64,000 bases of DNA from an uncultured Planctomycetia bacterium (GCA_964430735.1 CAYSFB010000005.1:110390-174389), one strand, 5' to 3'. Positions 1 to 57,623 are shown, numbered from the stretch's first letter. Translations and numbers: made by a program. Notes: generated by a model not told the origin, from the sequence alone.

Positions 1-1
1 C

Positions 2-10392: not shown

Positions 10393-10406
10393 CGCCGTTT
10401 CGGGGC

Positions 10407-10416
10407 GTGATAAAAT
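10407..10416 (+). promoter_or_regulatory. extended -10-like element GTGATAAAAT overlapping the first ATG of murI; this implies a leaderless or short-leader transcript starting at ATG 10424
   Basis: The motif is identical to 9240..9249. Confidence 0.35.
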
Positions 10417-11239: not shown

Positions 11240-11265
11240 ACTTTTTTAAAAAAGCAGAACTTTTT

Positions 11266-20605: not shown

Positions 20606-20633
20606 TTGATAGCCGCTGGTCCGTCATTATACT
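20606..20633 (+). promoter_or_regulatory. near-consensus sigma70-type promoter TTGATA-16 nt-TATACT in the 135-bp AT-rich divergent intergenic region upstream of the giant gene
   Basis: The -35 is at 20606-20611 and the -10 at 20628-20633, about 55 nt before ATG 20690. The region 20555..20689 is about 35% GC within a ~63% GC context. Confidence 0.45.
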
Positions 20634-20689: not shown

Positions 20690-22390
20690 ATGTCCTCAAA
20701 ATATCTGATCAGGAGCATTGCGCTCACTTTATCCATACTTTTCCCAATTCATGATCTTTGTTGGGCGGCCGCGTCGCGCCCCGGAGAAGCGGTTCCCGCC
20801 GCGCTTCCGGTCCCTGTTCCGACGGTTCAGGCCCTGACCGCTGATCCGCACCGCATCGAATTGCCGTCCGCCAGCATCCATCTCAAAGACGCCCGCCCCG
20901 GTACTGACGGCCGGCTTTTTATCCTGATCGAAGACCCCCACGCGAATTACGGCGGTCAGAAAAATATCTCCGCGGGCTTGAGCGCGCTTGCGCGGACGTA
21001 CGGAATCAAGACCGTCTTGCTGGAAGGCGGCGACCGCAAGGCGAATCTGGATGCGCTCAAGCCTCTGGTCGGGCCGCGCGAGCTGAGGATCGGCGCGGAG
21101 CAGCTGTTGCGCGAGGGTATTTTGAGCGGTCCGGAGCATTTGAGTCTGACGGGGGATGAGAAGATTGATTTTTACGGCGTCGAGAACGCCGCGCATTACC
21201 GTGCCGCGCTCCTGGCGTATGCGCGCGTGGCGGATCTGCGTAAACCGGCCGGCCGGGATCTGCACGCCGTCCGCAATGCGCTCGAAGCGCTCAAAGCCCG
21301 GCTTTATCCTGACACGCTGTTGGATTACGAAAATGACAAACGCTTGAATGCCGACTCCGATCCCTCGCAGATCGACCGGTTGTTCGATCTGGCCCGCAAG
21401 GCCGGCGCCGGGCTCGAAGCGTTTCCGTCGCTTGCGGCTATCGACCGGATCCGGTCCGCACAGTCCCGCATCGACTTCCGCGCCGTGAACCGGGAGCAGG
21501 AAAATCTTTGTGCCGCGCTTCACGCGACGCAGCATGCCGACGAGGCCGATTCGCTCGCGCGGGAGATCGGCCGCACGACTTCGCCGATCGAGCTCAAGCG
21601 CCTGATCGACCGGTTGCTCACGCTGCGGGGACACGTTGAGTACAACATGTCCCCGAATCTGGCCGCATACTCGGCTTATCTCGACTCCTTCAAGTCGATC
21701 GACTGGGGATCCGTGCTCACCGAATCCGAAGCGCTCGAAGCTCTGTCGTACAAGTCCCTCCTCGCCGACCCCGACGCCCGCAAAGTCGCCGTGCTCGACA
21801 TTTACCTGCGCTGGATGCAAAAAGCCTTTGACCTCGCGCTCACCTCCCGCGAGTTTGAACTCCTGAAGAGCAATCGTTCTCAATTTGAGGCCGGAGCATG
21901 GACGGGATTTTTGGAGAAAAAATCCGAAGCGCTCGGCATCCGGGACCTGCGCATCCCGAAGCAGCCCGCCTTTGACCGCGCCTGGCCTTCGGTCCGCGCT
22001 TTTTACTCCCTCGTAAACCTCCGCGACCGCGCCCTGCTCGAAAATGCCGGCAGGATCCTCGAAGAGCGCGGGGAAAAAACCGCCGTCCTCGTCGTCGGCG
22101 GTTATCACACCGAGCATCTTAAAAAACTCATCCAGAAGTCCGGCTCCGGCTGGGCGGTGCTCACTCCCCAGGTCCAGGCCGCGACGGACCGCGGGCAGTA
22201 CGAAAGACTTCTCCTGACCCCGCTCAACCGTTCTGCCCGCCGTGACGCGGCGTCTGCTGATCCCGTCAACATCGCTGTCCCGCTTCTCGCCGGCAGTCGT
22301 CTTTCCGCAGGTTTTGATCTTTCGGTAGAGCGTTCTTTGGGATCGGCTCCGGCTGCGGCTCTGCGCACTCTCCGTGCCGGCGAGCCCCGA
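20690..22390 (+). other. module 1 (567 aa): signal peptide plus conserved N-terminal domain shared with the ORF at 61729; tentatively TraB/ChaN/Tiki-superfamily-like
   Basis: ILIEDPHANYGGQ...VLLEGG...VLVVGGYHTEHL parallels VLLQDPHTNESGQ...VYTEGG...ALIAGGYHAPSL in the second gene. The superfamily call is tentative. Confidence 0.35.
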
Positions 22391-25300
22391 GGCGCGCGAA
22401 TGGCCGCTTCGGGAGACGTCGTGAGTCAGAGCCGTGCGGCAAAAGAGGCCGTTCTTCTGGAAATGAATCAGCTCCGAAAAAGCGGATTTGATTCATGGCC
22501 CCTGAGCCAAAGACTGGATTGGCTCAAGTCCTGGCAGGATCGTGAAGTCATCGAGACGTGGGATTGGAACGAACTGATGTCCGAGGCAGGTCTGACATTC
22601 GGGCCAGGTCGATCCGTTGTGCCCGATGTCGGTGAGCGGGGGGTCGGCGTATCCGTATTTGATAAATTCAAAATTCTCAGTATCTCCGATGGCGCCGGTT
22701 CCGCTCAGCCCCGCTTCCTGACCGTCAACGGGTCGCTGCATGATTGCATCGCCCTGACTCTTTTTGACCCGGCCGGCCGCACCGGAGTTCTGTTTCACCT
22801 GCACTATCTCCAAGACGCAGATACGGTCATCTCCCGAGCCATGACCGAACTGGCTTCGCAGAGGTCCGGCGCAGAGCCGCGTTGGCAGGCTCGATTGGCC
22901 GGCGGTTGGTCGGAACAGTCCGAAGATCTGGCGATCCGAATCCTGCGGGCTCTGGAGCAGCGTCAGATTCCCGTGGAGAGCATCGACATCCTGAGCAGAC
23001 CTGCCAGGCCGATCCAGGATGCGGTCGACAGCGCGTACGGCGGGGTTCGCCCTGTTTTGGATGTCGCGACGGGAGCGCTTTATGAGATTGCCCCCGGTCG
23101 ATCCGGCGCGCGGATGGCATCGAGGACTTTGCGGGCGGGCACGGCATCAGTCTTGTTTGCCGTTTTGGCTAATGCCTATGTGTATGCGTTGTTCCGACAC
23201 CACCTTGCGGGAGCCCTCGGCCCCTGGACGTCGGGAATCGTCGGATTTGTTGTCAACACATCCATCTTCTTAACCTTTTCGGGCTGGTTTAGGTGGAGCC
23301 ATCTATCCGAGGAAGCCGCGTTAAACAAGGTCCGGAAGGTTCGGTTGGACTTGATTCGTCGGGCAACACTTGCGGAGGACTGGAATCTGGTGCGGGCCCT
23401 CAAGCGCACGACACCCAAGATCGTACTCCCATCCGAGTATTCCAAAGTCGTTTACGGCGGTAAGCAGAATACCGTGAGCAAGTCGGGCAAAAAGATACGG
23501 CACATACTTCTCACGCCCGAACTGGCGGTCTCTGCGCAGGCGATCCGCTATCTTCTGGTGCGCCGTTCGTTGGGTTTTGATTACGATGAACAGGTTGCAG
23601 CCATCCGCTCCTCAGGGCGCGGCGACATCCCGTTCTTTACCGTTTGGCAGCGCTTTTATTGGGTGAGCTACTCGGACCTGGAGACCTTAAAGCGCGCCCA
23701 TATGTATCCGCTCTTCAGCGTTTACATTCTGGTTCACGGATCGCTCATGAATACCGTTGCCCTGACGGCCTCCATCGTGCTCCGGCTCTACCATCAGGTC
23801 TTGGGCGGCGCGAAGCGGGAGGGGGATATCATCACCGTCCCGGCTCTTGTGACCGGCGTTGCGGTGGCGACATATGCCTTGGGTTTGGTTGCCGAAACAG
23901 GCGGAAGGATGCTGATTGCCGCAGCCTCGGGCGCCAATCCCTGGGATGGGCTGGCCCATATCCAAATGTCGTTCGCCGGGCATCTGGCGGTGATGAATTC
24001 GCTTTTGTCCTACGTGTATCTCAGGGAAACGATCGCCAAGTTTGATTTGGATGCCCAGCCCGAACGATCAGGTGCGCGGTTGGCGGACAATCCGGCGGTT
24101 CAGCAGGCGTTTGATCCTTCGCGCGGTATGCTCACGGCCCAAGACCTGAGCGTGGAAGCGGCACCGGCTGTTTTGGCCGGACAGATCCGGATGGTGATGG
24201 AAAAAACCGGCAAGAGCAGGGATGTCATCGCCGTATTTGATCTCGACGATTATGGGCATCTTCGGAAATCCGCCGTGTCGGCCGGAGCCTCAATGACGGG
24301 CATCATCTCGCATGAGAGTCTCGCCATCCGCATGGCCGGTTTGGGCATGCGCTATTTCCAAAGCATGCTCATGGAACGCGACGCGGACGGCCGCGTGGTG
24401 CAGATCAACGTCATTCCACGGCTCATTTCTGCGGACGCCGACGCCAGACGATCCAGTTTCGGGCGGGCGGTTCTGCTAATGACACAAGTCGTTCGTGAAC
24501 TGGGTCTCGACCCCTCTCAGATCGTTACGAACGACTTTTTTTCCGTGAACAGCGCTTTTAAAACCACGCTCGACCGCGTCGCCGCTCATGCGGTGCAAAA
24601 CCAGTCCGAGATCAGGGAAACCGGTGCGCGGTTGGCGGATCGCGCGGAGTCCGCTGCCTTGAGCGATGCTGAAAAATCCAGGCTCACCCCCGAGTATCGG
24701 ACCGCGGCAGAGTTTTTTGACAACTTCGAACGTCTGAAGGCCGCTCATCCGGATCATAAGTGGATCGTGGTTGGCCGGCACATGGAATCCACGTCGAACC
24801 TGTTCCGATATCTTCAATCCTACATCACGTATTCTCCGCCGACCCTTCTGGGTCTGTTGCAGCGGTATTTTATGGGCCGGTTCTTGTCCGCCAAGGGAAT
24901 TCAGTTCGACCGCATCATCGCAAGCGATCTGGAGCGCGCCCACAGCCTGGGTCAAAAAGTGGCGGATCAAAACTCCGCGGCTGTTGAAGTGAAGCGGAGA
25001 CTGCGGGAGGTCATGACGATCTCTCTCGGCGGCATCCGCAGCGACCTGTTCGACGTCGCGCGCGAAGCGCAGCGGCTGCGTTTCATGTCTCACCCCGAAA
25101 ATTACGACATTCCGGGATATTCCGGAAGGGAAGTCACGACCTATATCCAGGAGCTTTTTTACAAAGACGTTCCGGGCCATGCGGCGCGGACGACGTTTGT
25201 CGCGACGCACGGCATGACGATCATTCTACTGCTCCATTATCTGCTGAAGATTCCGTTCGAGAAGTATGAAGCCGTTTTTAAAATGACCGGCAATTCGCCC

Positions 25301-28300
25301 AATGTCGGCCTGAGCGTCTTCTCCTACGACCCGTTGGAACGCTCTTGGAAAATGTGGGTGTATGCGGACAACTCTTATCTGCCCGCCTGGGTCCGGCCCG
25401 AAAGTACGGGCGGGTTCTTCCGCATGTTGGAACGGATTTTTTACGTCGGTCAGGGCATTTACCGCATCGGTTTGCGGATATTTGGGCATCAGGGTTATGG
25501 TCAGCCGGATTACTTTCCGCTGGTCCTGCCGTTCGTCCGGCCTTCCTCAGCCCAGATCCGGGTGCTCAGCAAGATGGCGCATCACGGCGTTTCAAAGGTC
25601 CGCCCATCCGGAGATCAGGCAAGCCCTCCGTTCCAAGGCGCGCGTCTGGCGCGCGGCGATCGGGAGCGAATGGAAAACGTGCTCCGCCGCGTCCGTTACC
25701 GCAGGGGAGTCCTGCCATCGCTGAAGGTGGCCGCTCAATTGTACGACGAGCATGGCCGGTATCTTTCCTCCGGCACCAACCGCACGGGCAGGCCGCATGC
25801 AGAGCCGGATGCCGTGCTCAATGCCTTTAAGCGCAAGATCCGCGATTCTAAAAAACAGGGAATAGATTCGGAGAAGATCCACCTGGCCGAAACAGTTGCC
25901 GACTATCTGCATCTTCGGTGGAGGACGCTGGATCGCGATACGGATGAAGTGACTTTAGCCCTGCTGGATTGGCTGAATCTGGCCCTGAACACCCCTCTCA
26001 AAAATGCATCGTTTTACGTGAGTCTGGATCCCTGTAAGCAATGCGCCGGGCTGCTGAGCCGTTTGGGCGTCCGGCAGGTTTTTTACGGAATGTACGATTC
26101 GAATCCGCTTCAGGACGGAAGGGGCCTCTCCATTTTGAATCAGAACGGCATTCAGGTGCAAAACCATCTGATGGAGCGCTCGTTCGAAATGGAGAATGCC
26201 TTGTTTGTCCGCGCCGTCAAACTCATGCCGGCGCTCTACCTCATGCTGCACAATGCCAGGAAAAATCTTTTCGCAGCATGGTTCCGGCACACGTATGCGG
26301 ACCGCTTATCCGGTCTTGAGCTCACGCTTCGGAAGCATCGTGAAATCGCCGATATCCTCGACGCGCCGCCGAATTCCCCCGTGCTGAAGCGGAACCGGCT
26401 TGATTGGCGGCCGATTCGACATCACACCACGAACATCGCCCAGATGCGGATGTCGATGCTCACTCGCAGCATCGTCAATCCGGATTCCAAAAACACCCGG
26501 GTTCTTTACGGAGGGGCCGGCACCGATTTGACCGGTGTTTTGGAGACTTTTGGACCTGCGGATGTTGCCATGGTTTCGTATTACCACGGGTTGCAAAAGG
26601 AGGATTTGCAGACTGCGATCGAGATTCTGCAGAATTCAGGCGAGCAACCGCCTCTACTGGGCGACCGGCGCGCTGACGAGTACCGCCGTGTAAAAACCGT
26701 CTATGGTTTTGGAACCCGGCATTATCTCGAAAACCGTCACGAAATCACCAATGCGCTCGCCATCGAATTGGCTGCGGTCGGAGCGGAGCGGGCCCGGGTT
26801 GATGTGGAATCGGAAGTGCCGAGACTTATTTTTGAATGTCCGGATCCATGGACCGGAAAACTCAGGACGGTTTCTGTGCTTTTCATCGAAGCGGATATTA
26901 CTGAGTCTGACCGGTATCCCGACGCTTTAAAGGAATGGATGCGAAGTGGGTTCGACGGATACTTTCAAAAAGCGGGGCTCAAGATCGCCCAGGCCTATTT
27001 GACTCGGCCCGAATATCTCCGCGGCATCTACGACCGCATGAAGCCGGAAGGGTATTTTGCAACCGATGATACGGCGTATGTGGAGTTCGATCCAGATGTG
27101 GAGGCGGACATCTTCCAGGACTTTTCGGACTATTTTCCGGTCAAGGACGGCATCCGGAGCATTTATCCCGATGGGCTGGGGGAAGTGATCCAGGCTCGCA
27201 TTGCGGGAGACAGCGCCTTTTCAAGCCGCTCCGAGTTGACCTTGCGGCAGATGTACGGCTTTTATCTCCGGCTGCGGCAAAAAAGCGTCGGCGCTCGCCT
27301 GGCCGCGCCCGGGGAAATCACCGACCTGCTGCCGGATCCGGCTCAAGCCCTTCCGTACGAACAATTGATGAGCAATTACAAAGGCTATTTGAGCGAAGGC
27401 TTGATGCGGGACGTTCTCGGGACCTACACGGCGCATTTTGTCCCCGCTTCGCTGGATCCGCAGGCCCGGGAGACGGATGCGCGGATCGTCCGCGAAAATG
27501 CCGGAAGAGGTTACGCCGATCTTCAGGTGACGCGGGTGCTGGACTACCACCGCTACATCGTTCCGATGATCCGTCAGTGGAAGACGGAACATCCTGACAA
27601 GCGTCTTCTGGTGCTCAACGTGGACACCCACGACGATCTGGCGACGTCTTATTCGTGGGTCAACGACGCGAACTGGGCGTATCGGGCCAACAACAGCGGT
27701 TTGGCCGACGTCTATCACGTTTATCCCGACGAGAATTTCCGCGCGTTCGAGTCAGACGCGCCGACGCAGCCCAAGGCGTTGAGGGATCTGGTGCTGAATC
27801 CCGAGATCAATCCGAATAGCTATGACGAGGTCTGGGTTACCATCGATTACGACTACTACTCCGCCCGCAGCGGGTATTACGCGGGCTCGTACAACCTCGA
27901 CCGGTTCGAGAGAGATCTGGAGCTGCGGGCGCTGACGGGTTTTTTCAGGCAAAACCGAATCCGGGTCTCCAAGGTTGTCCCGGTCATTTCCAAAGAATAC
28001 CTCTATCACATGGAGCCGGCCGATCAGACGAAGTTCGTGGAGGAATTGACCCTCCAGATCCATGAAGCATTTGAGCAGCTCTCCCGCAGCCAGACCGATT
28101 ATCCGGCCTCAGACAAGCCGTGGACGGTCGAAGTCCCCGAGGGAGAGTCCTATTGGGAATTCGCGATGCGCCGCTCGCTGGGTATGGGCGCGCGGCTGGC
28201 CGGCGATCCGACGGATCAGCATGGGCGCATCGTCGAGTTGTTGGAAAAACCGGACACGCGCCTCGTCCGCATGCCGAGCAACGGCTTCGACCGGTACCGT

Positions 28301-46300: not shown

Positions 46301-49300
46301 GAGGCCAAGTATCTGGCGCTCGCGATGCGTTCATTTTCCCGTCCGATGAGCGATGGAAAAAAAGGAAGACTGTCCCGCCATGAACTTTTGCGCCGGGTGA
46401 TGAGCAAGGGACTCCTTCACCGGCATACCGACAGCCGCCCCGTTTCTATTTTTGAGCCCGCCCCGCCGGTCCACACCGAGATCCGCGTGTTCCGTCTCTC
46501 GAATCTGGCGCCCGACAGCGGGGAGCTCGATCCGGTTTACCGGGAAGTTCTTTTCGGGGCCCGCCGCCTGGCCGCCGCCGCTTCCAGCCATCTCAAGAAG
46601 GAATCCGGCCGGCCCGTCACGGACATCGAGGACCGGCTGGCCCGCCGCTGGGAAGATTACCGGAACGAAATCACCGGACTGTATGCGGATGAGCGTTATG
46701 GTTCCGCGGCGCTCCTTCAAGCCGACTGGTACGAGGCCACCGGCGACATCGATGACCCGCGTCTGGTCCAGGAGCTCGGCATGATCCGGGCAACCGACGC
46801 TGCCGGTGAATTCCTGGCCGCACACGACGGCCTCCGCGACGAGCTGAAGGGCCGGTTATTCGAAGTTTTTGTCCGTCATGCCGGCCTCATTGACGCCGAT
46901 CTGTCCGGCGCGCGGCTGGCCGGGGTTGAACAGACTGTGAAGCATGTGGACGAGATCTTTTTCAGGAGCCTGTCGGACGAGGACTTGCCGGCCGCTTCGG
47001 AGAACGTGAAAAAGTTTTTTGTCGATCGGTTCAAAGACCTCCTGGAATCCTTGGAAACGCTCAAGAATCCCTTGCAGGCGTTCAAGGACCTTGCGCGCGC
47101 CGCGCGGCGAGAAGGCGGGATCTTCATGCTCTATGCCATCGGGATCGAGCTCATCGAGGACGTCGTGATTCCCGGTATCCTGGTGTATGCGGGGCAGCCG
47201 CAATGGGTTCCATTCTTTTTGGCGTTTCACAGCGAGCCGTTCATGTACCCGCTGTATTTTTATTTGCGGCGCAGGCTGAAGTCGACGCTCAAGCCCGATG
47301 AGTTCAACCGGTACTTTGAAAACGTTCGCGGCGACATGCTCAAAGCGACAACCCTGGAAGAAAAATGGAAAACCGGCCAGGAAGCCGCCCGCCGCGTGCG
47401 GCTCGGGGACGTGGTTCAGTATTTTGTCCAGGTTCTGGAGCGCGACACGCGTGAGGAGCTTGCGTCGGAATCGGATCTTGTCACGGAGCGAGAAGTCGCG
47501 ATCAAGGCTTTGGGGCGTCTTTTGGCACCGCCGGAAGCGCAAAAAACGGTGACGGCCGAAGTCTATCAGAAGGCCCTCGTTCAGCTGATGCTGCACGCGG
47601 ACTCCTCCAACCCCTGGCTGCGGAAAACGGCGCTCGGGGCGCTGGCCAAGATCAAGGACCCGCGCGGGTTGGCGCCGGTGCTCGCGGCGCTCGGCGATCC
47701 GAACCCGATCGTCAAATCCACCGCCGCCAGGGCGATCGGGCAATTCCGCTCCTCCGTTCCCGGTTCGGCCGTGAGCAGTTTGATCCAGACGGCGCTCGAC
47801 TCCCGAGAAAATATTTATGTCCGCGTGTACGCGATCCTCTCACTCGGCCGCATCGGCGAAAGCCTCGGGTCCGCCGCTCCGTCCAAACTGACGCCCGCGT
47901 TGATCCGGATCGCCGGTTTTGAGGATCCGGCCCTGCAAAGCGCTTCCATCGAATCGTTGGCGCGGTTGAGGAGCGGGGACCCGGCCGTGTGGGAATTTTT
48001 AAAAAACAAGGCGCTTCGAAACACCAAGAACTTTAATGCCGGCGAACTCGCGTTGTGGGGCCTCACGCGGACTGTCGCGGCCGGGTTGAGGACGGGGAAT
48101 GCGGATCCCCGCGAGCGGGAGCTCATGGCGCTTTTGAACCTGGCGCAAAAAGGGCCGGACGAAAAGCGCGCCCTGTTCGCGAATCAGGCGCTGACTCAAA
48201 TCTTCGGAATCCCGAATAAGACCGCCAAGCCGGCCGTAAAAAAACCCGCTCGTCGTCCGGCCAAAACCGGGCAAGTCCAGTTGGTGGCGGTCGAATCGCA
48301 GCCGTCGGTCAGGTCGACCCAGCGGAATCTGCAAACGGATCTGAATCGCCGAAAAGTTTCTCATTACGTGATGCGGGCGGATGATTTTTATTATCGGAGA
48401 AGCGACGCGCCGATTCTTGAATCCGGTCAGGTCGATTCCCGGAACCGGTTGAACGGAGCGCTCTTACTCAGGATCGTCCGCCGCAATCAGGAAGGCCGGC
48501 CCTTCCGCTATCCTTTTTACGATCCCTTCCGCGGCAAGGCCTACCTGCACCTGACCCGCTCCCCCAAAAACAGATTGATCCTGGTCGGCACCCGCGAAGA
48601 AATCGCCGCGATCGGCGAGTACCTAACAAAGGAACACGTCGATTTTACGACCCGTTCCAACCCGGGTCCCGAATCTCCCGAGCCCGCCGGCGCGCGGATG
48701 GCGGAAGTTCAGCCGGAAAAAAATCCAAACGCATCTTTCCAAAGAATGGTGACTGTGATCAGGGATGGCGGCATTCACCTTCATCCCTCCCTGGAGATTG
48801 CGTCGATTGCACGAGCTTATCAAGGCACCGAAATACGCCTGCATGACGGCAGGCAATCGGTGAATGCAAAAGAAATGTCCGAAATAGGTTTGTTGGCAGC
48901 CGGTCAAGGAGCGATGCTTACCGTGTCCGCTGTGGGCCCTCGCGCCGAAGAAGCCGTCGATGAAATTGCCGGGCTATCTTATTTTGCGCCAACAAAAGCC
49001 GCGCGGCTGGCGGAGGATGGGCGGACATCGCCGGATGCTTATTCCAACGATCTTCTCAAATGGTCTGCTTCGCTTGTCGAAGCCATGCCGCGCGGGTGGT
49101 TCGCCGGCATCTGGCGGCGGGATCCGTTGGAAAAGGCGGCGCAGGAAATGGCTGAGACAATCCTTTTTAAGATCGCAGCGGAAGAGCGCTCCGGTTATCT
49201 GGACGCGTTAAGGCGTTTTGCGCAGACCGCCCGCATCGGACCCGAAACGCTGATCGTGGACATGCGGCAGGAAGTGTTGCTGCGTGCCTGGAACCGTATT

Positions 49301-52300
49301 TTGAGCATGGACGCGGCGTTCACCAGAAGGGAATTTTTGGCAACTTTAGCCGCGGCGTCGGTTCAGACGGCCGTTTCGAGGTATGTTCCGATCCGTGAGG
49401 TTTTGTCCGGCCTTTCAGCCTCCTCAATAAAGGGCGCGAGCGTGGACGTTGCGTTGAGGTTCTTGTGGCAGCCGTCGTTTTTTTCGGTGGCATTTGAGAG
49501 GTACGAGGAAAACAGGGCGGCTCAGAAGCGTATGTTCGGAGCATCGAGCGTAGTAGGCTCGGATCTCCACGTGGAGTTCGTCTCTCCCATTCGTGCCATC
49601 CACGAACGGGTTCATGGTTCCGGAGACTTCAGGCCCATCAAGCCTGGGGATGCTTACGACGACACGCTCATCGGCGAACCCTATCTCGCGTCGCCCTTCG
49701 AAGAATATCCTCTGTGGGCCCGGAAAGAGATGGTCCTCGTCGCCAGACGATTCGCGGATAACTTCAATGCAACGGAAAGTTTCATGCGTTCGCTCGACGA
49801 AGATGTGCAGGCGCGGTTAGCAGATCTGGATCCATTGTCCCCGGAAGCGTCTCGCTTGCGGGCTTTGGTCTTGGAGCAGATGGATGCTCCGATCAACGTG
49901 CGAAAAGCCATGATCCGGGAGATCGGTGAGGAGCGCCGGGCCATCCAAAGCCGGCTGCAGCTCGCCGAGAACCCGGCGGATGCCGCGATGTCTTATGCGG
50001 AATCATCGAACAACGAATTCGCCTACGATCTTTTTCCCGAGCCGGACAAGGGCCCAAGCCCGCTTCAAATGGCTTACGACCTGTCCGGCCTTGAACTTCG
50101 CCTGATGCAGCAGATTGTTCAGTTCAGCGGGTCTGCGTTCGGACCGTCCGGCGCGCGGATGGCTTCGGACGCTCAGGCAGACCAGCCGGGACAGCCGGAC
50201 TCGGACGCGGACATTATCCGGAAATACGGCTGGAAAACCATCACGGACGACCCTCTAGCGACGGAACTTCTGCCGCGCGCACAGGCGCAAGCTGCCGTGG
50301 AAGAGATCCGGTCCTACTTCGAGGCCGAAGCGCCCGACTACGACCGCAAGAACTTTGACCGGCTGGATCTGGACGCGGCGCTGCAGTCGTCCGTACTTTT
50401 GAACGGCAACCGCCGGCTTCAGATCGTCCTTGTTCCCTATCAGGAAGACCCGGATGCCAAGCCGTGGAACCGGGTGAAGGACGGCATGTCGTTGTTCCGG
50501 ATCGACGGGGATCTCGTGGCGCACGGGTTCTACACGCACCGCATTGCCAAGAACGAGACTTTTCCCGCGTTCGGGATGCATCCTTCGGCGGCGCGCTTCC
50601 ACGCGTCCGAACAGATCTACAAGGCCTATCTCAAGACCCTGTACGGGATGTTCCGTCCGGACTTCTTCGGCGTTCAGGCCTCGCAGATCTGGAACCGCCA
50701 GCCGGGCACCAACCCCGACCGCACCATTTTCTATATCAAACGCGGCTTTTTGCTCCCGAACTCGGACGATCCGGGTCTGCAGGCCTTTGCGGACGGGATC
50801 TACGTGCGGTTGAAGGAAGACGACTGGCTCTCCCGCGAGGAAAAACTGGAGGTGTACGACCGGCTCCTCAACGGCCTGGAAGCCGAAGAGGGGAACGCGA
50901 TCTGGTATTCGACGCCCCTGGCGCCGGAGTCCGCCGGCGCGCGGCTGGCGGGTCGGGAGCGGATGCACGAACTGAAGCGGCGGGCGGACTTTAACAATCT
51001 GCGTGTCGGTGACCGCATTGAACTGCCCAAGGCGACCGCGTCGGTTCTCTGGGTAAAAAAAATCGGCAAGGGACATGCCGTGCTCGGGATCCAAAACGGA
51101 TCGGCGGAACGCGAAATCCAGATTGACCAACCCTTCAAATCCGGTTCCTCGATCACGTTCAAGCATGTCTCCGCGGGTGTTTTTGTCGGAGCGGTCGAGG
51201 TCGACGCAGATCGGTCTCAACCCCGTCTCGATCTGCGCGTGCTCACGCCCAAGGTCTTGCCGGATGATCCTATGAAGCAAGTCCCCACCAATGACGGTTC
51301 CGGCGCGCGGCTGGCCGAAGGCAGGCGGAAGCGCAGCGAATCTTCGGCGGCCAGGACTCGCCGTGAGAGGATGATCGCCCGGATGAACGAGACGCCTCCG
51401 GACGGTCATCATTGGAAAATCTCGGAGTTGGCGCAGTCGTTAGGGGTCAGTATCCACACCCTGCATAACGATCTGAGGGCTCGGAACCTCCGTTATTCCG
51501 ATAGAATCCAGAAACACTCTCTCAAAAGGCCCTCCAAGAAAGAGATTGTTTTGAGGCGGGAGCGCGTCGCCGCCAAGTTTTTTCAAGCCACTCTGGATAA
51601 CCCTTGGACGGTTCAGTCGCTTGCCACAGAGCTGGGGCTCGCTAAAAAAACCGTTTATGACGACTTGGATTCCATGGATCTTCTGGGGTCTGATCTCTTG
51701 CAGTTGGAAGACCGCGCGCCGGTCGTCGAGGCTCGTGCGCGCCGACTGCGCTTGACCGTTCTGCTGAATCAAAATCCTCCTCATGGCGACCGCTGGACAG
51801 TGGCTCAATTATCCAAAGCTTTGAACGTCAAACAGGGGATTGTTTACTACGATCTTCAGTATCTGGGGCTTCTGGATTCCGACATGATTGAACTGAGAAA
51901 AAAGCCATCCCAGGAATATCTGAATGCCCGCCGGCAGCGGCTTCGCAATTTGCTTCAGTTGAACCCTCCGGATCGCGATCGCTGGACTACCAATGAATTG
52001 GCGCGAGTGCTGAACATGCCCCGGTTCATTGTGTACAGCGATTTGGCGGCCATGAACCTGCTCGATTCTGACAGGCTGGATATCGAAAGATATCAAAATC
52101 CATTTTCTCGGGAAGAGATCGAGCAACGGCGTCTGCAGATCGCGGTCACCCTTTTGTCCGTGGCGCCTTCCGGGAGGAAGCGCTGGACCGTGGGAATGCT
52201 GGCGGAGTATCTGAATCTGTCGTATGACCTGATATACCACGGCCTGATGGAGGCCGGTCTTTTAAAGTCCAAAAAATTGAGTCTTCGAAAAATCAGACGG

Positions 52301-55300
52301 CCCCATGCCCCAGTCGAAAAATCTCTGAGGAGTCTGGCTGCGTTTGAGATGAGCGCGGATCCGGTGGAATCGCTTCCTGATGATCAGGCCCAGTTGATCG
52401 ATCTGGCGCGCAGCAGGCTGGATGACGCTGAGTACGAGATTTTTCTGCGCGATTATTTTTCGCAAGACGACGAGAGCATCGAACAGGCCGCTGCGGCCAG
52501 CCATCTGACGACCGAGGAACTCGTTCTTAAACGGAGCGAGATTCTTTTTAAGCTGTCGCGCGACGGCGCGCGGCTGGCGAGCGAACGCCAACTGACACTG
52601 GATCGTCTTCGGAACGTTGGCCGACGTTTAGAGCGTCTCGCGGAAGCCCTCGGATTTGGGAAAGACCACCCCGAGATCCAGCGCTTTGAAGACGAAATGG
52701 ATCGCTTGAGGCAGGCGGGTGACAAGGACGCTTACCGAAGGCGAGCCCGGGAGCTGTACGACGAAATCAGTTCGCGGCACACCCCGACATTCCGGACAGC
52801 TCAGAACTTCGTTTTTTACTCCAAGTTCATCCGCGGGCTTGAGATGCGGCTTCTGTTGCGGGAAACCGGCAATCCCGGATCGAGTTCCAAGTTTGAATGG
52901 CCGGAGGATGAAAAAACCCGAGCCCGCCATACCCTCCTGGCCGCGAAGCAGTTTGTCGGCAGGATAGCTTTTGCCATCAACTGGTGGGAGGACCAGCTGC
53001 GGAATTTGGACGCTTCGGGTCCACTGGAACCAATGCCGCAGAATATCGATTGGGATGCTGTCGAATTTATGGCCGTTCTCACGGCTCTCCAGTCAGCGGA
53101 TATAAAGCTCGCGGGCTTTTCAAAATCCATGGACCGGATCGATCGCACTCTCACGAATGTGTTGGAAGGGATTTATCAGGACGGGCCGGACATTGGCGGT
53201 GCCGGCGCGCGTCTGGCGCAGTCCAAGTTTGCGGTTGTAAAGGAGCGCCCCGAAGCCGCGGCGCTCAAGATGGCCGGGGCGCTGCGTGCAGCGATGGCGG
53301 CCAATACGGATTCGATAGAGTTCTTCTCATTGCGGGGCTGGATGGTTTTTCATCCGGATGGAACGGCTTCGGCGGTTTTTCAGCCAGTTCGCGACTCATC
53401 GGGTTATACGCCCGCCCACGAGCGTTTAAAGGAGGCCTTTGTCGAAGATTATGCGGATCAGGCGATATTGGAAGGTGCCTGGGTCAAGCTGGCGGTCATT
53501 TTTAGAGACGGCAAGTCGGCCGGAGTTTCGCTCATGGACTTCGATAAGGATAAAAAAGAAAGTTTTGTTCAGGCCAGCTTCCTGATGGAAGACCTGCTTC
53601 GGGCCGCGTTCGGCGATCAGGAGGCCCGTGAGGTGTACAGCTATGTGCCGATGGCAGAGTTTTTGGACGAGGAATATGAAAAAGTTCTGCGGCCGTTGGC
53701 GGACCAAAACGGCACATCGCGGTCAGCGCTTTCCATCATCAACCAAACGTTGAGGAAAGCCGCAAAAAACGTTCAATCTGAACCCGTTCCGGAATCGTCA
53801 AAAGGGGACAGGTCGGGTGCGCGGATGGCCAGCAAAGGTGTGGTGGACTTGAGTCAGGAATTCCGCCGGCTTAATACCAAGCTGGTGTCGGTCTTGAAGG
53901 CCGCCGAACCGGACTCGATCAAGCTCACCACCACGATGATGCATGCTTTTTTTGCAAGCGACACGATTCCTGTCCCGGGCGAGTATTCCGATAATCCGGC
54001 CGAGGATTATTCAGGCCGGCTTGCGATGAGCATCGTGTGGTTCAGAAAAGCTGCCGTGAGGAGGGGCAATCACAGTAAACGGATATTTCAGCCGGAAAAA
54101 GCGATCGGGGCTTTGAGTCAGATTCTCGAGGTTCTGTCCGAGACAAATATTCCGGATCGGATTCCGCGCAAGACCATTCTTACTGCGCGGACGGCGGTCA
54201 GCGATTTCATGGCCTTGATCGAACCCTCCCTGAACGAGCCGCAAAGGAGGGCGTCCGTTTCCGGTTTCGAAGGGCGAATCGGCGTGGAGGCGCAGCTCCA
54301 GTATTGGTATGACCAGCCCGGCGATTTTGTGGGCGATGAGATTGATATCACGGGCTATCTCGGATCCAAAAGCCGCAAAGAAGCCAAGATCCATTGGAAC
54401 TTTTTGCTTCCGAACGGCCAACCGTTGAAGCGGAGGGTCGCCATGGGAATCGGAGGCGGGGCCGGGATTTTGAAGTACACCGTCCAGCCGATGAGAGAGG
54501 TCGGAGCGCTTAATCTGGTATTCCGTGGTTATCGGGGGTCGGAGTCGCGCCAAGAGGCAAGGTCGGGACTGTTCCGCTGGGATGCGGCTGCTCAGACAAT
54601 CCGGCACACGCGCGAACTCATGGACGAATGGCTTGCCGGTCAGTACAAACGGACGGGTGATTTTAAAAGCGAAGAGAAGCCCATCAACCGGTATATCGGC
54701 CAATCCTCCGTCGACATGGCGACGGTGAGCAAGGGCTTTTTGCTTCCCAACGGGCGGACGTGGGGGCATCAAGACCCTATGCGGTTGGGGCTTCGCGGGC
54801 TACCGCTCTATACCGTGCAGGTCCAAGGCGTTGCCGGACAACTGCAGATCGTCTTTCGCGGTTATCGTGATCCGCATGGAAGGCGGCCCGTCGCAACCGC
54901 GGTCTGGGATTGGGTTTCGGAAAAGGGGAAATTTGTGGAGACGCACGACCGTTGGCTTTCCAGACAGTACGCGAGGAGCGGGGTGTTTTCAACCGAGGAC
55001 TTTGTGATCAATGATTATCTGGGCTTGTCCGGTGTTCGATCGGGCGTGCTGAATAAGGCTTTTCTCCTGCCGAACGGCAAAACGCTGGGCTATCACCCGA
55101 ACCTGCGGTTGAACCGTAAATCGGAACGGTTCGACCGATTCACGGTGCGCGTGCAGAGAAGCTTCGATTCGGGTCCTTTGGAGCTGGTTTTTAAGGGCTG
55201 GAAGCTGGATGCGATCGGATGGAATTCGACCGCGCAGTCAGAATGGGTTTGGAATCCCGAGACCGAAAAACTTGTTTTCCGGTCCAGGTCGGAAGGTGCC

Positions 55301-56023
55301 CGGCTGGCGGTAGATACGGGTCGGAATCGCATCGCGGCCGAATCTGATTTGTGGCTTGAGCAATTGTCGGATTTGTTGGCACTTTTTGAACTCTCGAGTT
55401 GGGAGATCGACGCGCGCGCCGAGGGGATCGCACGGCCGGAGAACGCGGAAGATTTGACGCTTCTTTTGCTGAAAAGCGCGGCGGCTTCGTTCGAGGAAAC
55501 GGGTAAAACGGTCTTGGTCCGCGTCGGTGAGGGCGTGCTGGACGCGGGGGCCAAACAAGACGAACTCATGGGGATGTTAAAAAAGCTTTCTGAGCACGCA
55601 GTGAAATACGGGATTTATTTTGATTGGAGCCGGGTGATGGGATTTGCCGGCGAAGTTCCTTCCGCGCCGGAAGGAAGCGAAGAAGTGAGGATCGTGACGG
55701 ACGCGGCCCAGCTGGCAGCCGGCCAGACAGGGCTCGTTTCGGCGGAGAATCCGGATATTTCGGGTCTGGGGCTCTTTGCCGCGCTCCTGGCCCGGACTCC
55801 GAAGAACGCACTCGACGCTTTTATGACGCAGCACGCGAGCGCGCTCAAAACGTTCTACGAATCCGAGCTGTCGGTCGAGACGCTGGCGGACTTCAAGGAC
55901 GTGCCTGCGGACCCCGGCCGGCGCATTCAACTCAACTTCCACAAGGCTGTTCCGCTTTTGCGCGTGATAGAACTTTTTCAACGGCTCCAGACCGCCGCCC
56001 GCCTGGCATCCATTTCCGCCTGA
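20690..56023 (+). CDS. giant 11,777-aa multi-module protein or polyprotein; more than 30 unrelated domains delimited by a recurring [SA][GA]AR[LM]A hexapeptide
   Basis: A single ORF with no stop for 35,334 nt. All recognisable domains are read in this frame. N-terminal signal peptide/TM [20 protein letters not shown]. The motif occurs at all 34 module junctions (positions listed in the first finding) and in the last 10 residues ([10 protein letters not shown]-stop). Confidence 0.75.
   Translation: [11777 protein letters not shown]
23105..24070 (+). other. module 3 (322 aa): polytopic membrane module, 5-6 predicted TM helices
   Basis: Hydrophobic runs [79 protein letters not shown] and [13 protein letters not shown]. 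Confidence 0.6.
24623..25636 (+). other. module 5 (338 aa): histidine phosphatase (PGAM-branch) domain
   Basis: [13 protein letters not shown] is the RHG catalytic motif. IIASDLERA and [10 protein letters not shown] supply the second His. Confidence 0.6.
25790..26060 (+). other. CMP/dCMP(CDA)-type zinc deaminase motif region inside module 6 (25637..27289)
   Basis: [14 protein letters not shown] (HxE) and [12 protein letters not shown] (PCxxC) have the correct order and spacing. Confidence 0.55.
28187..29140 (+). other. module 8 (318 aa): class I SAM-dependent methyltransferase-like
   Basis: [25 protein letters not shown] and [13 protein letters not shown] (motifs I-III). It ends at the variant motif GARLS (29141). 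Confidence 0.45.
29141..29881 (+). other. module 9 (247 aa): sigma-70-family-like module (region 2 plus region 4 HTH)
   Basis: Region 2-like [41 protein letters not shown]. Region 4-like [28 protein letters not shown]. The size equals that of a free sigma factor. Confidence 0.5.
30368..30940 (+). other. module 11 (191 aa): ICMT/phospholipid-methyltransferase-family-like membrane methyltransferase
   Basis: [17 protein letters not shown] ... [25 protein letters not shown] (RHPxY plus the EE..L..FG..Y..Y pattern), with flanking TM helices. Confidence 0.5.
31673..33682 (+). other. module 13 (670 aa): type I phosphoribosyltransferase (ComF/GntX-like) followed by a beta-propeller-like domain
   Basis: PRTase PRPP motif [22 protein letters not shown] (nt ~32118-32165). 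Downstream are repeated Gly/Asp-rich beta strands ([39 protein letters not shown]...). Confidence 0.55.
33683..34198 (+). other. module 14 (172 aa): histidine-kinase-type HATPase_c (GHKL) domain with a possible H-box
   Basis: N-box [14 protein letters not shown], G1 IRDSGIGI and G2 [19 protein letters not shown]. The upstream [15 protein letters not shown] is a possible phospho-His site. Confidence 0.6.
35294..36127 (+). other. module 17 (278 aa): second methyltransferase-like Rossmann module
   Basis: [23 protein letters not shown] and [10 protein letters not shown]. Confidence 0.35.
36960..37320 (+). other. NUDT9-like Nudix ADP-ribose pyrophosphatase domain inside module 18 (36128..37480)
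   Basis: [30 protein letters not shown] ... [23 protein letters not shown] closely follows the NUDT9/NUDT9H pattern NPRGRTGLRGRG...GPNH.DP.VTRW...KGYMDDPRNTDNAWIETVAV. Confidence 0.7.
37481..38536 (+). other. module 19 (352 aa): GHKL-type ATPase region resembling an anti-sigma-factor Ser kinase
   Basis: [35 protein letters not shown]. The call is tentative. Confidence 0.3.
38537..39601 (+). other. module 20 (355 aa): ECF-type sigma-70 module (regions 2 and 4) plus an extra C-terminal HTH
   Basis: Region 2-like [21 protein letters not shown]. Region 4 [44 protein letters not shown] is a textbook ECF sigma-4 signature. Confidence 0.65.
47560..48000 (+). other. PBS-lyase-type HEAT repeats inside module 26 (46907..48688)
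   Basis: [46 protein letters not shown] ... [17 protein letters not shown] ... [19 protein letters not shown]. Confidence 0.6.
48689..48997 (+). other. module 27 (103 aa): HPr-like phosphocarrier domain
   Basis: [76 protein letters not shown] matches the HPr fold pattern (GLHARPA-like His, NAKS, LG..G). The module has exactly stand-alone HPr size. Confidence 0.6.
51302..52564 (+). other. module 31 (421 aa): five tandem ~50-aa HTH-like repeats followed by a sigma-70 region-4-like HTH
   Basis: Repeats of the form RR.R....L...PPxGxxWTxxxLAxxLxxxxxxVYxDLxxxxLLDSD (nt ~51350-52270). Then [43 protein letters not shown]. Confidence 0.5.
54320..55290 (+). repeat. three tandem ~110-aa protein repeats of unknown fold (FLLPNG...LxLVF[RK]GY motif) inside module 34
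   Basis: [12 protein letters not shown]...[12 protein letters not shown] / [12 protein letters not shown]...[13 protein letters not shown] / [12 protein letters not shown]...[11 protein letters not shown]. Confidence 0.55.
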
Positions 56024-56054
56024 TCCGCTCCGCGGCCTTGCGTCAGGAGCGTTT

Positions 56055-56064
56055 GTGATAGAAT
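56055..56064 (+). promoter_or_regulatory. extended -10-like element GTGATAGAAT, 12 nt upstream of the ATG at 56077
   Basis: The third copy of the GTGATA[AG]AAT class. Confidence 0.35.
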
Positions 56065-56076
56065 ACCGGTTCAATT

Positions 56077-56922
56077 ATGGCAATGGTCAAAGGTAAAATC
56101 AGAATCGGCCACAGTCCTGACGCGGATGACGCGTTCATGTTCTACGGCATTGCGTGCGGAGGGGTCGATACATCGGGCCTCACGATCTCGCACGTCGTCG
56201 AAGAGATCCAGGCTTTAAACGAGCGCGCCTTCCGCGGCGAACTCGAAGTCACCGCCATTTCCGCCTACACCTATTTTGAAGTCGCCGACAAGTACACCCT
56301 CATGTCCTGCGGCGCGTCCATCGGCGACAACTACGGTCCCGTCGTCGTGTCCAAGAAGCTCAATTACCCCAAAGAGATCAAAGGCAAGCGCATCGCCGTC
56401 CCGGGCAAGTACACGACGGCCTATCTCATGCTCAAGCTGTATGAGCCAGACGTCGAAGCGGTGTTCGTGCCGTTCGACCAGGTGCTGCCGACCCTGGACA
56501 AAGGTCTGGCCGACGCGGCGCTCGTGATCCACGAGGGACAGATCACCTTCAAGGACCAGGGGTACACCAAGGTCCTCGACCTCGGCGAATGGTATTACGA
56601 GAACACCAAGCTCCCGCTGCCGCTGGGCGTCGACGTCGTCCGGACCAATCTCGGCAAAGACCTCATGCGCAAGTGCCAGCGCGTTTTCCGCGATTCCATC
56701 ATTTACGCGCTCGAGCACCGCGAAGAAGCGGTCGAATACGCGATGAAGTACGCCCGCACGACGCCCCGGGACACGATCGACCGCTTCATCGGCATGTACG
56801 TGAACGAACTCACGGTGAACATGGGCAGGCGCGGGAAGGACGGCCTCATCCACCTGCACGAGTCGGCCAAGGCCTCCGGTCTCCTTAAGAACGAACACCC
56901 GATTCAATTTGTACCTTTCTAA
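56077..56922 (+). CDS. MqnA/MqnD-family menaquinone (futalosine pathway) biosynthesis protein
   Basis: N-terminal IRIGHSPDADDAFMFYGIACGGV matches the MqnA/MqnD signature (G.SPCPND.FiFyal). About 280 aa. MqnA and MqnD cannot be distinguished by eye. Confidence 0.5.
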   Translation: MAMVKGKIRIGHSPDADDAFMFYGIACGGVDTSGLTISHVVEEIQALNERAFRGELEVTAISAYTYFEVADKYTLMSCGASIGDNYGPVVVSKKLNYPKEIKGKRIAVPGKYTTAYLMLKLYEPDVEAVFVPFDQVLPTLDKGLADAALVIHEGQITFKDQGYTKVLDLGEWYYENTKLPLPLGVDVVRTNLGKDLMRKCQRVFRDSIIYALEHREEAVEYAMKYARTTPRDTIDRFIGMYVNELTVNMGRRGKDGLIHLHESAKASGLLKNEHPIQFVPF

Positions 56923-56923
56923 G

Positions 56924-57598: not shown

Positions 57599-57623
57599 AT
57601 AGGGACACGTACTATTTAATTTT

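Follow-up and report, generated by a model that had tools for sequence, protein, structure and literature searches.

A giant bacterial open reading frame with gene-sized modules, a recurrent pentapeptide delimiter and a TIKI-like head

How can more than thirty unrelated proteins share one bacterial reading frame, and in what form would they act? This question is raised by a stretch of 64,000 nucleotides (nt) of metagenome-assembled DNA, hereafter the window, which is assigned to an uncultured Planctomycetia bacterium (GCA_964430735.1, CAYSFB010000005.1:110390-174389). Positions 20690-56023 of its plus strand form a single open reading frame (ORF) of 35 kb, referred to here as the giant, which runs from an ATG through 11,777 codons to a stop. 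A preliminary description of the window parsed the product into about 35 protein-like segments and pointed out that several of these are hard to reconcile with permanent tethering in one membrane-anchored chain. Extracytoplasmic function (ECF) sigma factors and HPr, for example, normally function as free proteins. Here, we describe a pentapeptide that sets the segmentation of the chain and a conserved head with a predicted TIKI-like fold. That description missed both, as well as the fact that giant proteins had already been described in Omnitrophota. The paradox of the tethered proteins may be resolved by the pentapeptide, if it is a processing site. The explanation that we put forward, at even confidence, is that the giant is an exported polyprotein that would be processed at this delimiter.

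The reading frame, its delimiters and its head

The giant ORF is genuine. At the base composition of the window about 3.3% of triplets would be stops, or about 1 random triplet in 30, so that 11,777 stop-free codons are impossible by chance and the frame has presumably been kept by selection. The longest open frame in any other frame of the same span has 840 amino acids (aa). The coding signature is uniform, with a guanine-plus-cytosine (GC) content at the three codon positions of about 0.63/0.43/0.69 in every 3-kb block, and the ORF contains no N bases. Contiguity was checked against the Logan assembly of the same sample (SRR14271366), which was made with a different assembler. Contig SRR14271366_188 is 100% identical to window 8083-30554, and the gene call on it gives an open product of 9,346 residues that reaches the contig end, at window position 48,728. 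Contig SRR14271366_11767 is 100% identical to window 48983-57621 and holds the last 2,346 codons and the stop. The second assembly reproduces 11,692 of the 11,777 codons, with 100% identity where both are readable and no stop or frameshift there; only 254 bp (48729-48982) lie outside it. The uninterrupted frame of the preliminary description is confirmed in this way. The same description held that the product is not a repeat protein, a non-ribosomal peptide synthetase or an adhesin array, and self-BLAST bears this out, since a single internal repeat was found, a helix-turn-helix (HTH) array at aa ~10207-10489.

The segments are set by a short motif, (S)-[GA]-A-R-[LM]-A, which occurs 36 times in the giant, compared with 4.4+-1.9 times in shuffled sequences (regular expression [GSA]AR[LMF]). 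The delimiters are located as follows.

22391-56008, plus strand: 36 in-frame delimiters of 15 nt each, DNA consensus TCC GGC GCG CGG MTG GCG
First bases of delimiters 1-12, plus strand: 22391, 23105, 24071, 24623, 25637, 27290, 28187, 29141, 29882, 30368, 30941, 31673
First bases of delimiters 13-24, plus strand: 33683, 34199, 34559, 35294, 36128, 37481, 38537, 39602, 40382, 41462, 43172, 44402
First bases of delimiters 25-36, plus strand: 46907, 48689, 48998, 50150, 50588, 50936, 51302, 52565, 53204, 53816, 55295, 55994
55994-56020, plus strand: last delimiter, AARLA, followed by a four-residue cap, SISA, and the stop

The result is a set of 36 modules, 103-835 aa long, with a median of 288 aa and a mean of 327 aa. 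This reproduces the range seen before, and the lengths match the normal length distribution of bacterial proteins. None of the 14 recognised domains is cut by a delimiter (P=2e-4 against random placement), and several domain edges lie close to one: the NUDT9-like domain ends 6 residues away, the deaminase starts 5 away and the HTH array 3. The residues that flank the motif are not conserved; a sequence logo shows them to be slightly rich in Pro and Ser before it and acidic after it. The relaxed motif does not occur in the remaining 9,075 aa that the window encodes. As the last copy lies 4 aa before the C-terminus, the motif terminates modules and does not start them. A complete homologue, L027, also stops 9 aa past a motif.

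The N-terminal 570 aa of the giant form a conserved head that is led by a predicted signal peptide and comprises the following parts.

20690-20773, plus strand: Sec-type signal peptide, from a hydropathy scan (MSSKYLIRSIALTLSILFPIHDLCWA before the predicted cut, AAS after it)
20777-22249, plus strand, aa ~30-520: head, with a predicted TIKI/TraB/ChaN/erythromycin-esterase-like alpha/beta core and a large helical insert
22250-22405, plus strand: linker, predicted to be disordered, with the first delimiter, GARMA (aa 568-572), at its end

The head was modelled with AlphaFold from a 14-sequence alignment of aa 30-572. The predicted local distance difference test score (pLDDT) was 77 and the predicted template modelling score 0.65; an earlier model from a 2-sequence alignment, with a pLDDT of 43, was discarded. 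In the model, the head can be described as an alpha/beta TIKI fold with a parallel beta-sheet core, which is divided by a helical insert of ~290 residues. The linker, model residues 491-543, has a pLDDT of 23-35. A Foldseek search with this model gave EreC as its top match, weakly supported. Residues D82-x-H84, E112 (at +28) and GGxH473 are invariant or nearly so in alignments of 5, 9 and 14 sequences. They appear to match the 2His/2Glu catalytic signature of the TIKI family and the His-Glu spacing of published members, with Asp in place of Glu as the first acidic residue. The published counterparts are His85/Glu113 of Bcr135 and Glu3900/His3902/Glu3930/His4030 of RRSP, which is a site-specific endopeptidase. 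Fold and residues together make the head a candidate protease for cleavage at the delimiters. At the level of sequence, Pfam gave no match on aa 1-1000 (TraB, Erythro_esteras and Cofac_haem_bdg included), and a profile of the head gave no significant match to PDB sequences. A lipobox at the signal peptide was considered and rejected, the Cys not being conserved in paralogues (the N-termini of the L008-L011 giants read ...DLAWAAP).

The giant is depleted in cysteine. Of its 11,777 residues, 11 are Cys (0.09%), and two of these serve as zinc ligands of the deaminase; the 21 neighbouring ORFs together have 1.23%. For comparison, the two envelope proteins of the window have 0.12% (GH2-like) and 0.24% (AsmA-like), and other members of the head family have 0-0.5%. 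From this composition and the hydropathy scan, we infer that the whole chain is probably exported.

The head defines a family. P0105, a complete protein of 4,960 aa on a Logan contig, is homologous to the giant over ~430 aa at the N-terminus (22% identity, E 1e-19), and continues with an Rce1-like membrane domain and enzymes for the salvage of nicotinamide adenine dinucleotide (NAD). Among species-representative genomes, 4 head loci were found, in metagenome-assembled genomes (MAGs) labelled Planctomycetia and Elusimicrobiota. Joint Genome Institute metagenomes gave at least 373 loci, of which 79 were fetched and underlie the family statistics. A scan of viral contigs for relatives of the head found none. 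The 79 loci include ~40 stand-alone heads of 500-620 aa and 33 long ORFs, each with at least 1,300 aa, to which the head is fused. The data point to a widespread, uncharacterised family in which a hydrolase head that resembles the TIKI/TraB/erythromycin-esterase group, led by a predicted signal peptide, would be followed by a variable string of gene-sized modules. Many stand-alone heads are followed on the same strand by an ORF of 2.7-3.4 thousand aa, and some are named 'hypothetical protein [Candidatus Omnitrophota bacterium]'. Such a split arrangement of head and body is seen at L034, L062, L064, L068, L084, L086, L088 and L090, where heads of 500-620 aa stand alone and the ORFs 3' of them, on the same strand and from a few bp to ~500 bp away, have 1.7-3.4 thousand aa, lack the motif and are poor in Cys.

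The motif recurs in the family. In the 33 other long head-fused ORFs (98,186 aa, from genomes of 43-63% GC), [GA]AR[LM]A was counted 115 times, where composition would predict 1.4. Three or more copies are present in 20 of the 33; the first lies mostly at aa 500-720, where the head ends, and the median spacing is 275 aa. The pooled copies show how strict the motif is. Position 1 is G in 113 and A in 35, position 2 is A in 148 and S in 22, and position 3 is R in 148 and K in 1. Position 4 is L in 97, M in 51, F in 5 and I or V in 3, and position 5 is A in 148, S in 15 and T in 6. No alternative delimiter was found in those family members that lack the motif.

The codons of the motif are also biased. 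In the giant, GCG is used at 30 of 36 sites and CGG at 28 of 36, compared with 42% and 33% over the whole ORF (p 4e-7 and 3e-8), and GGCGCGCGG is present in 16 in-frame copies, with 0 on that strand of the window outside the giant. The Leu codon of the motif varies, however, between CTG, TTG, CTC, TTA and CTA, and paralogues may use AGG, AGA, CGT or CGA for the Arg. As these codons vary while the residues stay, the primary constraint is on the peptide. RNA folding at the motif sites is more stable than at control sites, but the sites are also richer in GC.

Comparison with close relatives shows what happens beyond the head. In the closest one, L010, the housekeeping proteins are 86-97% identical to those of the window and the AsmA-like protein is 80% identical. 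A giant, called at 5,056 aa, stands at the same site after the AsmA-like gene, and over its first 582 aa it shares 69% identity with the head. An L010-type orthologue is recorded as Logan SRR23592399_15593, of 26.3 kb. Homology at the DNA level between the L010 giant and the window ends at window position ~22,203, ~190 nt before the first motif, and protein similarity stops just after the first GARMA; beyond this point the two bodies are unrelated. The five visible delimiters of the L010 giant are all G[GC]N GCG CGG ATG GCN. The ratio of non-synonymous to synonymous substitution rates (dN/dS) of the head is 0.25, compared with ~0.06 for housekeeping genes and 0.17 for the AsmA-like gene, which indicates purifying selection and yet fast evolution. 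In L008, L009 and L011, whose housekeeping proteins are 77-93% identical, no giant occupies that site, and MqnA comes directly after the AsmA-like gene (with 47 bp between them in L008). The body of the giant behaves as exchangeable cargo, which is replaced wholesale between close relatives with a breakpoint at the first delimiter.

These three relatives carry another giant right after SdhB, where the window has ThyA-FolA (L008 12979-21926, L009 7101-15795, L011 10588-19532). The heads of these post-SdhB giants are paralogous, with identities of 26-29%, and their domains include CofD and GFO_IDH in L008 and PGM_PMM in L009.

The modules between the delimiters

Modules were searched against Pfam, NCBIfam and PDB sequences, with a relaxed Pfam pass at E<=0.5 for 20 modules of unknown family. 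The domains and hydrophobic segments that could be placed are as follows.

23126-23893, plus strand, aa 813-1068: hydrophobic cluster 1, inside module 3, with ~4-5 candidate transmembrane helices by Kyte-Doolittle
24842-25357, plus strand, aa 1385-1556: histidine phosphatase (His_Phos_1, CobC/GpmB-like), RHxxS and HG motifs intact
25667-26224, plus strand, aa 1660-1845: CDA/RibD-type zinc deaminase, HAE...PCKQC intact, with 2 of the 11 Cys of the giant
29150-29458, plus strand, aa 2821-2923: weak ECF-sigma-like match (E 0.004, below the gathering score), beginning at a delimiter
30656-30919, plus strand, aa 3323-3410: possible remnant of an ICMT/PEMT-like membrane methyltransferase (weak, E 1e-6 to 2e-3, below cut-offs)
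31814-32227, plus strand, aa 3709-3846: type I phosphoribosyltransferase (ComF-like), with the phosphoribosyl pyrophosphate (PRPP) loop DDLITTG intact
33710-34183, plus strand, aa 4341-4498: histidine-kinase-type ATPase (HATPase_c), N, G1 and G2 boxes intact
35825-36001, plus strand, aa 5046-5104: class I S-adenosylmethionine (SAM) methyltransferase (Methyltransf_11), Pfam E 3e-4
36743-37462, plus strand, aa 5352-5591: NUDT9-like domain, E 4e-26 to human NUDT9 (PDB 1q33), Nudix box degenerate
38702-39211, plus strand, aa 6005-6174: complete ECF sigma-70 factor, regions 2 and 4 (TIGR02937, positions 12-162 of 165)
44525-44686, plus strand, aa 7946-7999: HEAT repeats, by Pfam
47414-47989, plus strand, aa 8909-9100: HEAT repeat array, by Pfam and PDB sequence search
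48740-48973, plus strand, aa 9351-9428: HPr-like domain of module 27 (103 aa), separated from the two delimiters by 12 and 8 residues
51326-52309, plus strand, aa 10213-10540: sole internal repeat, an array of HTH units of ~65 aa, and after it an IS630-type N-terminal HTH

About 12 distinct Pfam families are present, none of which dominates by copy number. Some 13 of the identities named in the preliminary description were recovered by the profile and PDB sequence searches, including His_Phos_1, the CDA-type deaminase, the phosphoribosyltransferase, HATPase_c, HEAT, HPr and the HTH array, whereas no family could be detected for ~20 of the 36, the Pfam pass at E<=0.5 giving only noise. That description named two or three SAM methyltransferases, of which Methyltransf_11 was found, and three sigma modules, of which one is a full ECF factor and one is weak; the additional methyltransferases and the third sigma module were not recovered at Pfam E<=0.5. 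Neither were its beta-propeller and its second GHKL kinase. The ICMT-like membrane methyltransferase stands as the weak match listed above. It lies in a second hydrophobic cluster, at aa 3279-3384, and this cluster and the first agree with the two membrane segments noted before.

The fit between domain and module can be close. The histidine kinase ATPase fills module 14 (aa 4337-4508), with 4 and 5 residues between it and the two delimiters, and its homologue in L022 is bounded by delimiters likewise. The NUDT9-like module had been taken for an ADP-ribose pyrophosphatase. The similarity to NUDT9 holds, but the catalytic Nudix glutamates are lost: the segment reads ...LKNAIQRKTG..., with KNAIQRK where REFGEE would be expected, and the Nudix-box expression GX5EX7REUXEEXGU has no match anywhere in the giant protein. 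With these residues lost, the module is more likely to be an ADP-ribose binder than a pyrophosphatase, as judged from its sequence. The whole of module 18 (aa 5152-5602), which contains this domain, is also found in P0003 and P0015, and is bounded by motifs in P0015. A HMMER search with aa 5000-6199 gave homologues for the NUDT9-like unit only; many are stand-alone proteins of 260-300 aa, and some lie within proteins of 2-5 thousand aa. In the HPr-like module, His15 is kept (GIHLHPS) and the position of Ser46 is Glu (NAKE), residue correspondence being assigned by eye. The 254-bp gap in the second assembly falls in this module, between the delimiters at nt 48689 and 48998. The first Logan contig ends 25 nt past one motif and the next begins 15 nt ahead of the following one, and low coverage or a module-level polymorphism in the population could account for the gap.

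Several candidates were tried and rejected. At the place equivalent to hydrophobic cluster 1, P0105 and the L010 giant have an Rce1-like/CPBP domain, but the EExxxR, FxxxH and HxxxN motifs of that protease family are not present at aa 813-1068. Module 2 (aa 573-810), with the rare Cys686 in 'GSLHDCIALTLFDP...HLH', was considered CheD-like and had no Pfam match even at E 0.5. The GDSGG and TAAH motifs of a trypsin-like module that would cut after the motif Arg were not found in the giant, and no family match backs the two HExxH motifs at aa 7455 and aa 9638. Glycosyltransferases, glycosyl hydrolases and peptidases were not found in the giant by the Pfam and NCBIfam searches, and no Pfam match to SecA_DEAD or the SecA preprotein-binding domain was obtained at E<=0.01 over the whole giant protein.

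Homologous body modules are rare between giants, with 16 high-scoring segment pairs among 40 proteins. Where both partners carry motifs, these pairs end 3-15 residues from them. Modules in other family members include HATPase_c, HPr, Trypsin_2, His_Phos_1 and DnaJ; Trypsin_2 occurs in the homologue L022 and not in this giant. P0004 (4,008 aa) has NadD-like, HAD, CN-hydrolase plus NAD synthase, NAPRTase, isochorismatase (PncA-like), radical SAM, NUDT9-like and Nudix domains, essentially a whole route of NAD salvage and synthesis in one chain, and lacks GAR[LM]A. P0003 (3,817 aa) has up to 14 copies of another short repeat, (M)PLPGKIP; its module homologous to module 18 aligns with aa 5148-5592 of the giant at 36% identity. 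The motif-less L007 (aa 2486-2781) and P0105 (aa 4655-4960) share a C-terminal region of ~300 aa with 33% identity, their middles being different, and this region may be a 'tail' module.

A processed polyprotein and the rival explanations

The exported polyprotein is suggested by several features taken together. A strict motif follows every module including the last, the modules are gene-sized and autonomous, a predicted disordered linker precedes the motif, the head has a predicted TIKI-type fold, and a putative signal peptide is combined with depletion of cysteine. The gene would be transcribed from one upstream promoter, for which the following candidate is available.

20606-20633, plus strand: sigma-70-like promoter candidate TTGATA-16-TATACT, matching at 10 of 12 positions, in an AT-rich spacer of 135 bp that precedes the giant ORF

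The Sec signal would then lead the chain across the inner membrane, where one or two hydrophobic modules may hold it, and cutting at the delimiters would yield up to 36 separate proteins. The predicted products are enzymes of nucleotides and cofactors, regulator-like proteins (ECF sigma, HPr, histidine kinase ATPase, HTH), HEAT scaffolds and ~20 modules without a recognised family. The cut could be made by a TIKI-type endopeptidase activity of the head itself or by a protease in trans, and the released proteins may work on the cell surface or inside a host or prey cell.

Several observations weigh against this proposal. The topology was read from one kind of analysis, a Kyte-Doolittle scan. 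Most recognisable modules need cytoplasmic cofactors (adenosine triphosphate, SAM, PRPP) or partners (RNA polymerase, the phosphotransferase system), which fits an extracytoplasmic location poorly unless they are delivered into another cell. The head is also found alone, or fused or adjacent to long ORFs that lack the motif, so that head and motif are not obligatorily coupled, and many complete homologues end in a module of ~300 aa that has no terminal motif. Proteins of the TIKI fold include esterases and haem binders besides peptidases. Lastly, the Ala-Arg of the motif is mostly encoded by GCG-CGG even in genomes of 43-50% GC, in which CGG makes up 11-23% of Arg codons; the bias is seen in the window and in L021, L022, L031, L036, L059, L076 and L081. 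A pure protease-site model has no explanation for this bias, which hints at an additional role at the level of nucleic acid, perhaps as an in-frame recombination junction.

The chain might instead persist as a permanent membrane-anchored megaprotein, a 'metabolon on a string', in which GAR[LM]A would be an uncleaved linker, a hinge or a peptide that docks a chaperone, the translocon or a partner. This is how published readings take the Omnitrophota giants, as membrane-anchored multi-enzyme assemblies. The pathway fused in P0004 would be sensible as a tethered metabolon, HEAT scaffolds are present, and no dedicated protease module (GDSGG, C39, S8) was found in the giant ORF. We take this explanation seriously but consider it unlikely: a passive linker needs no strict preference for Arg over Lys and for Leu or Met over Ile or Val across genomes of 43-63% GC, the motif also follows the last module, where nothing is left to link, and ECF sigma factors and HPr usually work free. 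It is improbable, in our judgement, that the motif is mainly a signal in nucleic acid, G[GC]C GCG CGG NTG GCN, which would serve as an in-frame junction for cassette exchange and encode a harmless peptide, an arrangement that is compatible with cleavage. Such a signal would agree with the excess of GCG and CGG over ORF usage, also where CGG is a minor Arg codon, with the confinement of GGCGCGCGG to the giant on its strand, and with the loss of DNA homology to the L010 giant ~190 nt ahead of the point, just past the first motif, where protein similarity stops. It would further agree with giant bodies that are nearly unique and with the motif-bounded state of the few modules that are shared. However, substitutions within the motif are conservative in protein (G/A, A/S, L/M, A/S), Leu codons are free to vary and AGG, AGA, CGT and CGA replace CGG in paralogues. 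The flanks of the locus carry no recombinase, repeats or mobile-element genes, head relatives were absent from viral contigs, and 15 nt is short for homologous exchange.

Two further explanations do away with the long chain itself. In one, the ORF would be a stop-less operon whose modules are translated from internal starts at the fourth codon of the motif, or after processing of the mRNA there. That codon is NTG (ATG, CTG or TTG) at 33 of 36 sites, the next one encodes Ala, which is common as a second residue, and a 2026 preprint speculates on atypical or internal initiation in Omnitrophota giants. Half of the sites are CTG, though, a very poor start codon, and elsewhere in the family CTC, TTA or CTA often encodes the Leu. 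No Shine-Dalgarno-like sequence was found upstream of the sites, only 4 codons follow the last motif, and promoter-like sites inside the ORF are not enriched (3 against 5.8 expected). A stop-free frame of 35 kb would also be pointless if the modules were translated separately, and we regard this explanation as very improbable. In the other, the ORF would be an artefact, that is, an assembly chimera, a run of pseudogenes, or ordinary genes joined by a missed frameshift or stop. The sequence does come from a metagenome assembly, and 254 bp lie outside the second one, but the agreement between the assemblies, the uniform coding signature, the intact catalytic motifs of several modules and the recurrence of head plus motif on 33 unrelated contigs leave this hardly credible.

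Locus, related systems and significance

The locus is chromosomal and lies among housekeeping genes, namely Ino1, ExoIII-like, IspG, MurI, a radical-SAM protein and a Rieske/FMN-reductase/CDGSH protein. Nearer to the giant are RNase PH, RdgB, an SNF2 helicase and a divergently oriented AsmA-like gene, and after it come MqnA-like, SdhCAB and ThyA. The tRNA and Rfam scans of the window gave no matches, and neither mobile-element features (recombinase, repeats) nor type I secretion genes were found among the neighbours. The 90%-identity cluster of SdhA includes an NCBI protein named '[Candidatus Omnitrophota ...', and stand-alone head homologues are named Candidatus Omnitrophota or Omnitrophica, while some head-bearing MAGs are labelled Planctomycetia or Elusimicrobiota. 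Judged from these proteins, the host is most likely an Omnitrophota bacterium.

Three other genes of the window deserve mention. The SNF2/RapA-like helicase (1,101 aa, window 14692-17997), between RdgB and the AsmA-like gene, is missing from the syntenic regions of L008, L010 and L011, the relatives that span that junction, and is a second lineage-specific insertion beside the giant. Window 2084-7183 encodes a protein of 1,699 aa that has a membrane anchor at its N-terminus and contains a GH2/GH72-like TIM barrel. With 0.12% Cys and 3.4% Trp, it shows the Cys-poor signature of the giant, and its exact sequence is absent from a collection of 15 billion proteins. The mechanically called radical-SAM ORF (window 10972-12015) overlaps MurI by ~270 nt. 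As the Logan gene call is 249 aa long, its true start is probably near 11266.

The giant gene itself appears to be a further case of the giant multi-enzyme proteins known in Omnitrophota. These bacteria carry hundreds of 'multi-enzyme' proteins of at least 10 thousand aa with PF08241, PF02518, NUDIX and HEAT, 39% of which have a signal peptide and transmembrane helices (Nielsen & Lui 2026, bioRxiv 10.64898/2026.06.07.730766). The catalogue of that study holds 5,761 proteins of such length. By its sequence, the giant would fit their 'class 1 multi-enzyme' proteins with signal peptide and transmembrane helices ('SP+TM'). It has at least 10,000 aa, many Pfam families of which none dominates, PF08241, PF02518, NUDIX and HEAT, a predicted signal peptide with few transmembrane helices, and a sequence-unique body, 80% of the clusters in that study being singletons. 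In contrast to what is found here, Nielsen & Lui report no inter-module motif, conserved head or cleavage sites (the words 'motif', 'linker' and 'cleav' are absent from their text), and their largest architecture groups carry C39 peptidase or SecA_DEAD, neither of which was found in the giant. West-Roberts et al. (2023, bioRxiv 10.1101/2023.11.21.568195) suspected post-translational cleavage, left open whether giants are cleaved, and gave the cleavage points as not known. The delimiter motif, the conserved head and its family, the body swap and the depletion of cysteine are not described in either study or in the 2026 initiation preprint. Like Archaeovorin, the giant has HEAT_2, HATPase_c, NUDIX and a methyltransferase, and a region without identifiable domains next to its N-terminal signal peptide. 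It is much shorter, with 11,777 aa compared with >30,000, and was not found to have the numerous transmembrane helices, divergent SecA_DEAD, many glycosyltransferases or C39 or S8 peptidases of that protein.

Outside this group, the head resembles the superfamily of TIKI, TraB, PrgY, erythromycin esterase and ChaN, including the MARTX effector RRSP, in its D/E-x-H, its E at +28 and its C-terminal GxxH. PrgY/TraB-type proteins likewise have an extracytoplasmic domain followed by transmembrane helices. The head departs from the superfamily in lacking a sequence-level Pfam or PDB match, in its helical insert of ~290 residues and in its fusion to thousands of residues of cargo. MARTX toxins are also very large secreted polypeptides with an array of unrelated effectors, which are freed by proteolysis at short sites between domains, and a TIKI-fold domain occurs in their family; for the giant, secretion is predicted. 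In contrast to MARTX, however, the giant has no RTX or glycine-rich repeats, no cysteine protease domain and no type I secretion genes nearby. Its delimiter is different and much more regular, and its modules resemble enzymes and regulators and not known cytotoxins. Viral polyproteins and polyubiquitin precursors offer an analogy of principle only, as motifs, proteases and organisms differ: gene-sized units stand in one frame with a short conserved separator, and the last motif is followed by a short cap as in polyubiquitin. Phages and conjugative elements reportedly encode polyvalent proteins, said to have been described by Iyer and colleagues in 2017, which are huge, combine many unrelated enzymatic domains and were proposed to be processed by embedded peptidases. 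Polyvalent proteins are carried on mobile elements and are injected with DNA, while the locus of the giant is chromosomal, among housekeeping genes, and viral contigs held no relatives of its head. To our knowledge, no chromosomal bacterial polyprotein of such scale is known.

Do giant proteins work as one megadalton chain or as many products? This standing question is made directly testable by the combination of a motif with a head of predicted protease fold. The motif provides candidate scissile sites to be sought in proteomes, and point mutants can be placed at its Arg and at H84, E112 and H473 of the head. The delimiter also allows giants to be cut computationally into units fit for modelling. 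A large, uncharacterised family of proteins is also delimited by these findings, with at least 373 loci in metagenomes. Wholesale exchange of cargo between near relatives is as expected for genes at the interface with a host or prey. A bolder version of the polyprotein proposal, which we hold to be doubtful, is that the giants are stop-less operons for export, in which a Sec-targeted TIKI head would pull a chain of as many as dozens of unrelated proteins from the cytoplasm and cut it at (S)GAR[LM]A into effectors for a host or prey, while the motif, with its GCG-CGG, would double as an in-frame junction for swapping cargo. If this reading of export and swap junction were true, the family would amount to a bacterial chromosomal polyprotein system with a built-in grammar for cassette exchange.

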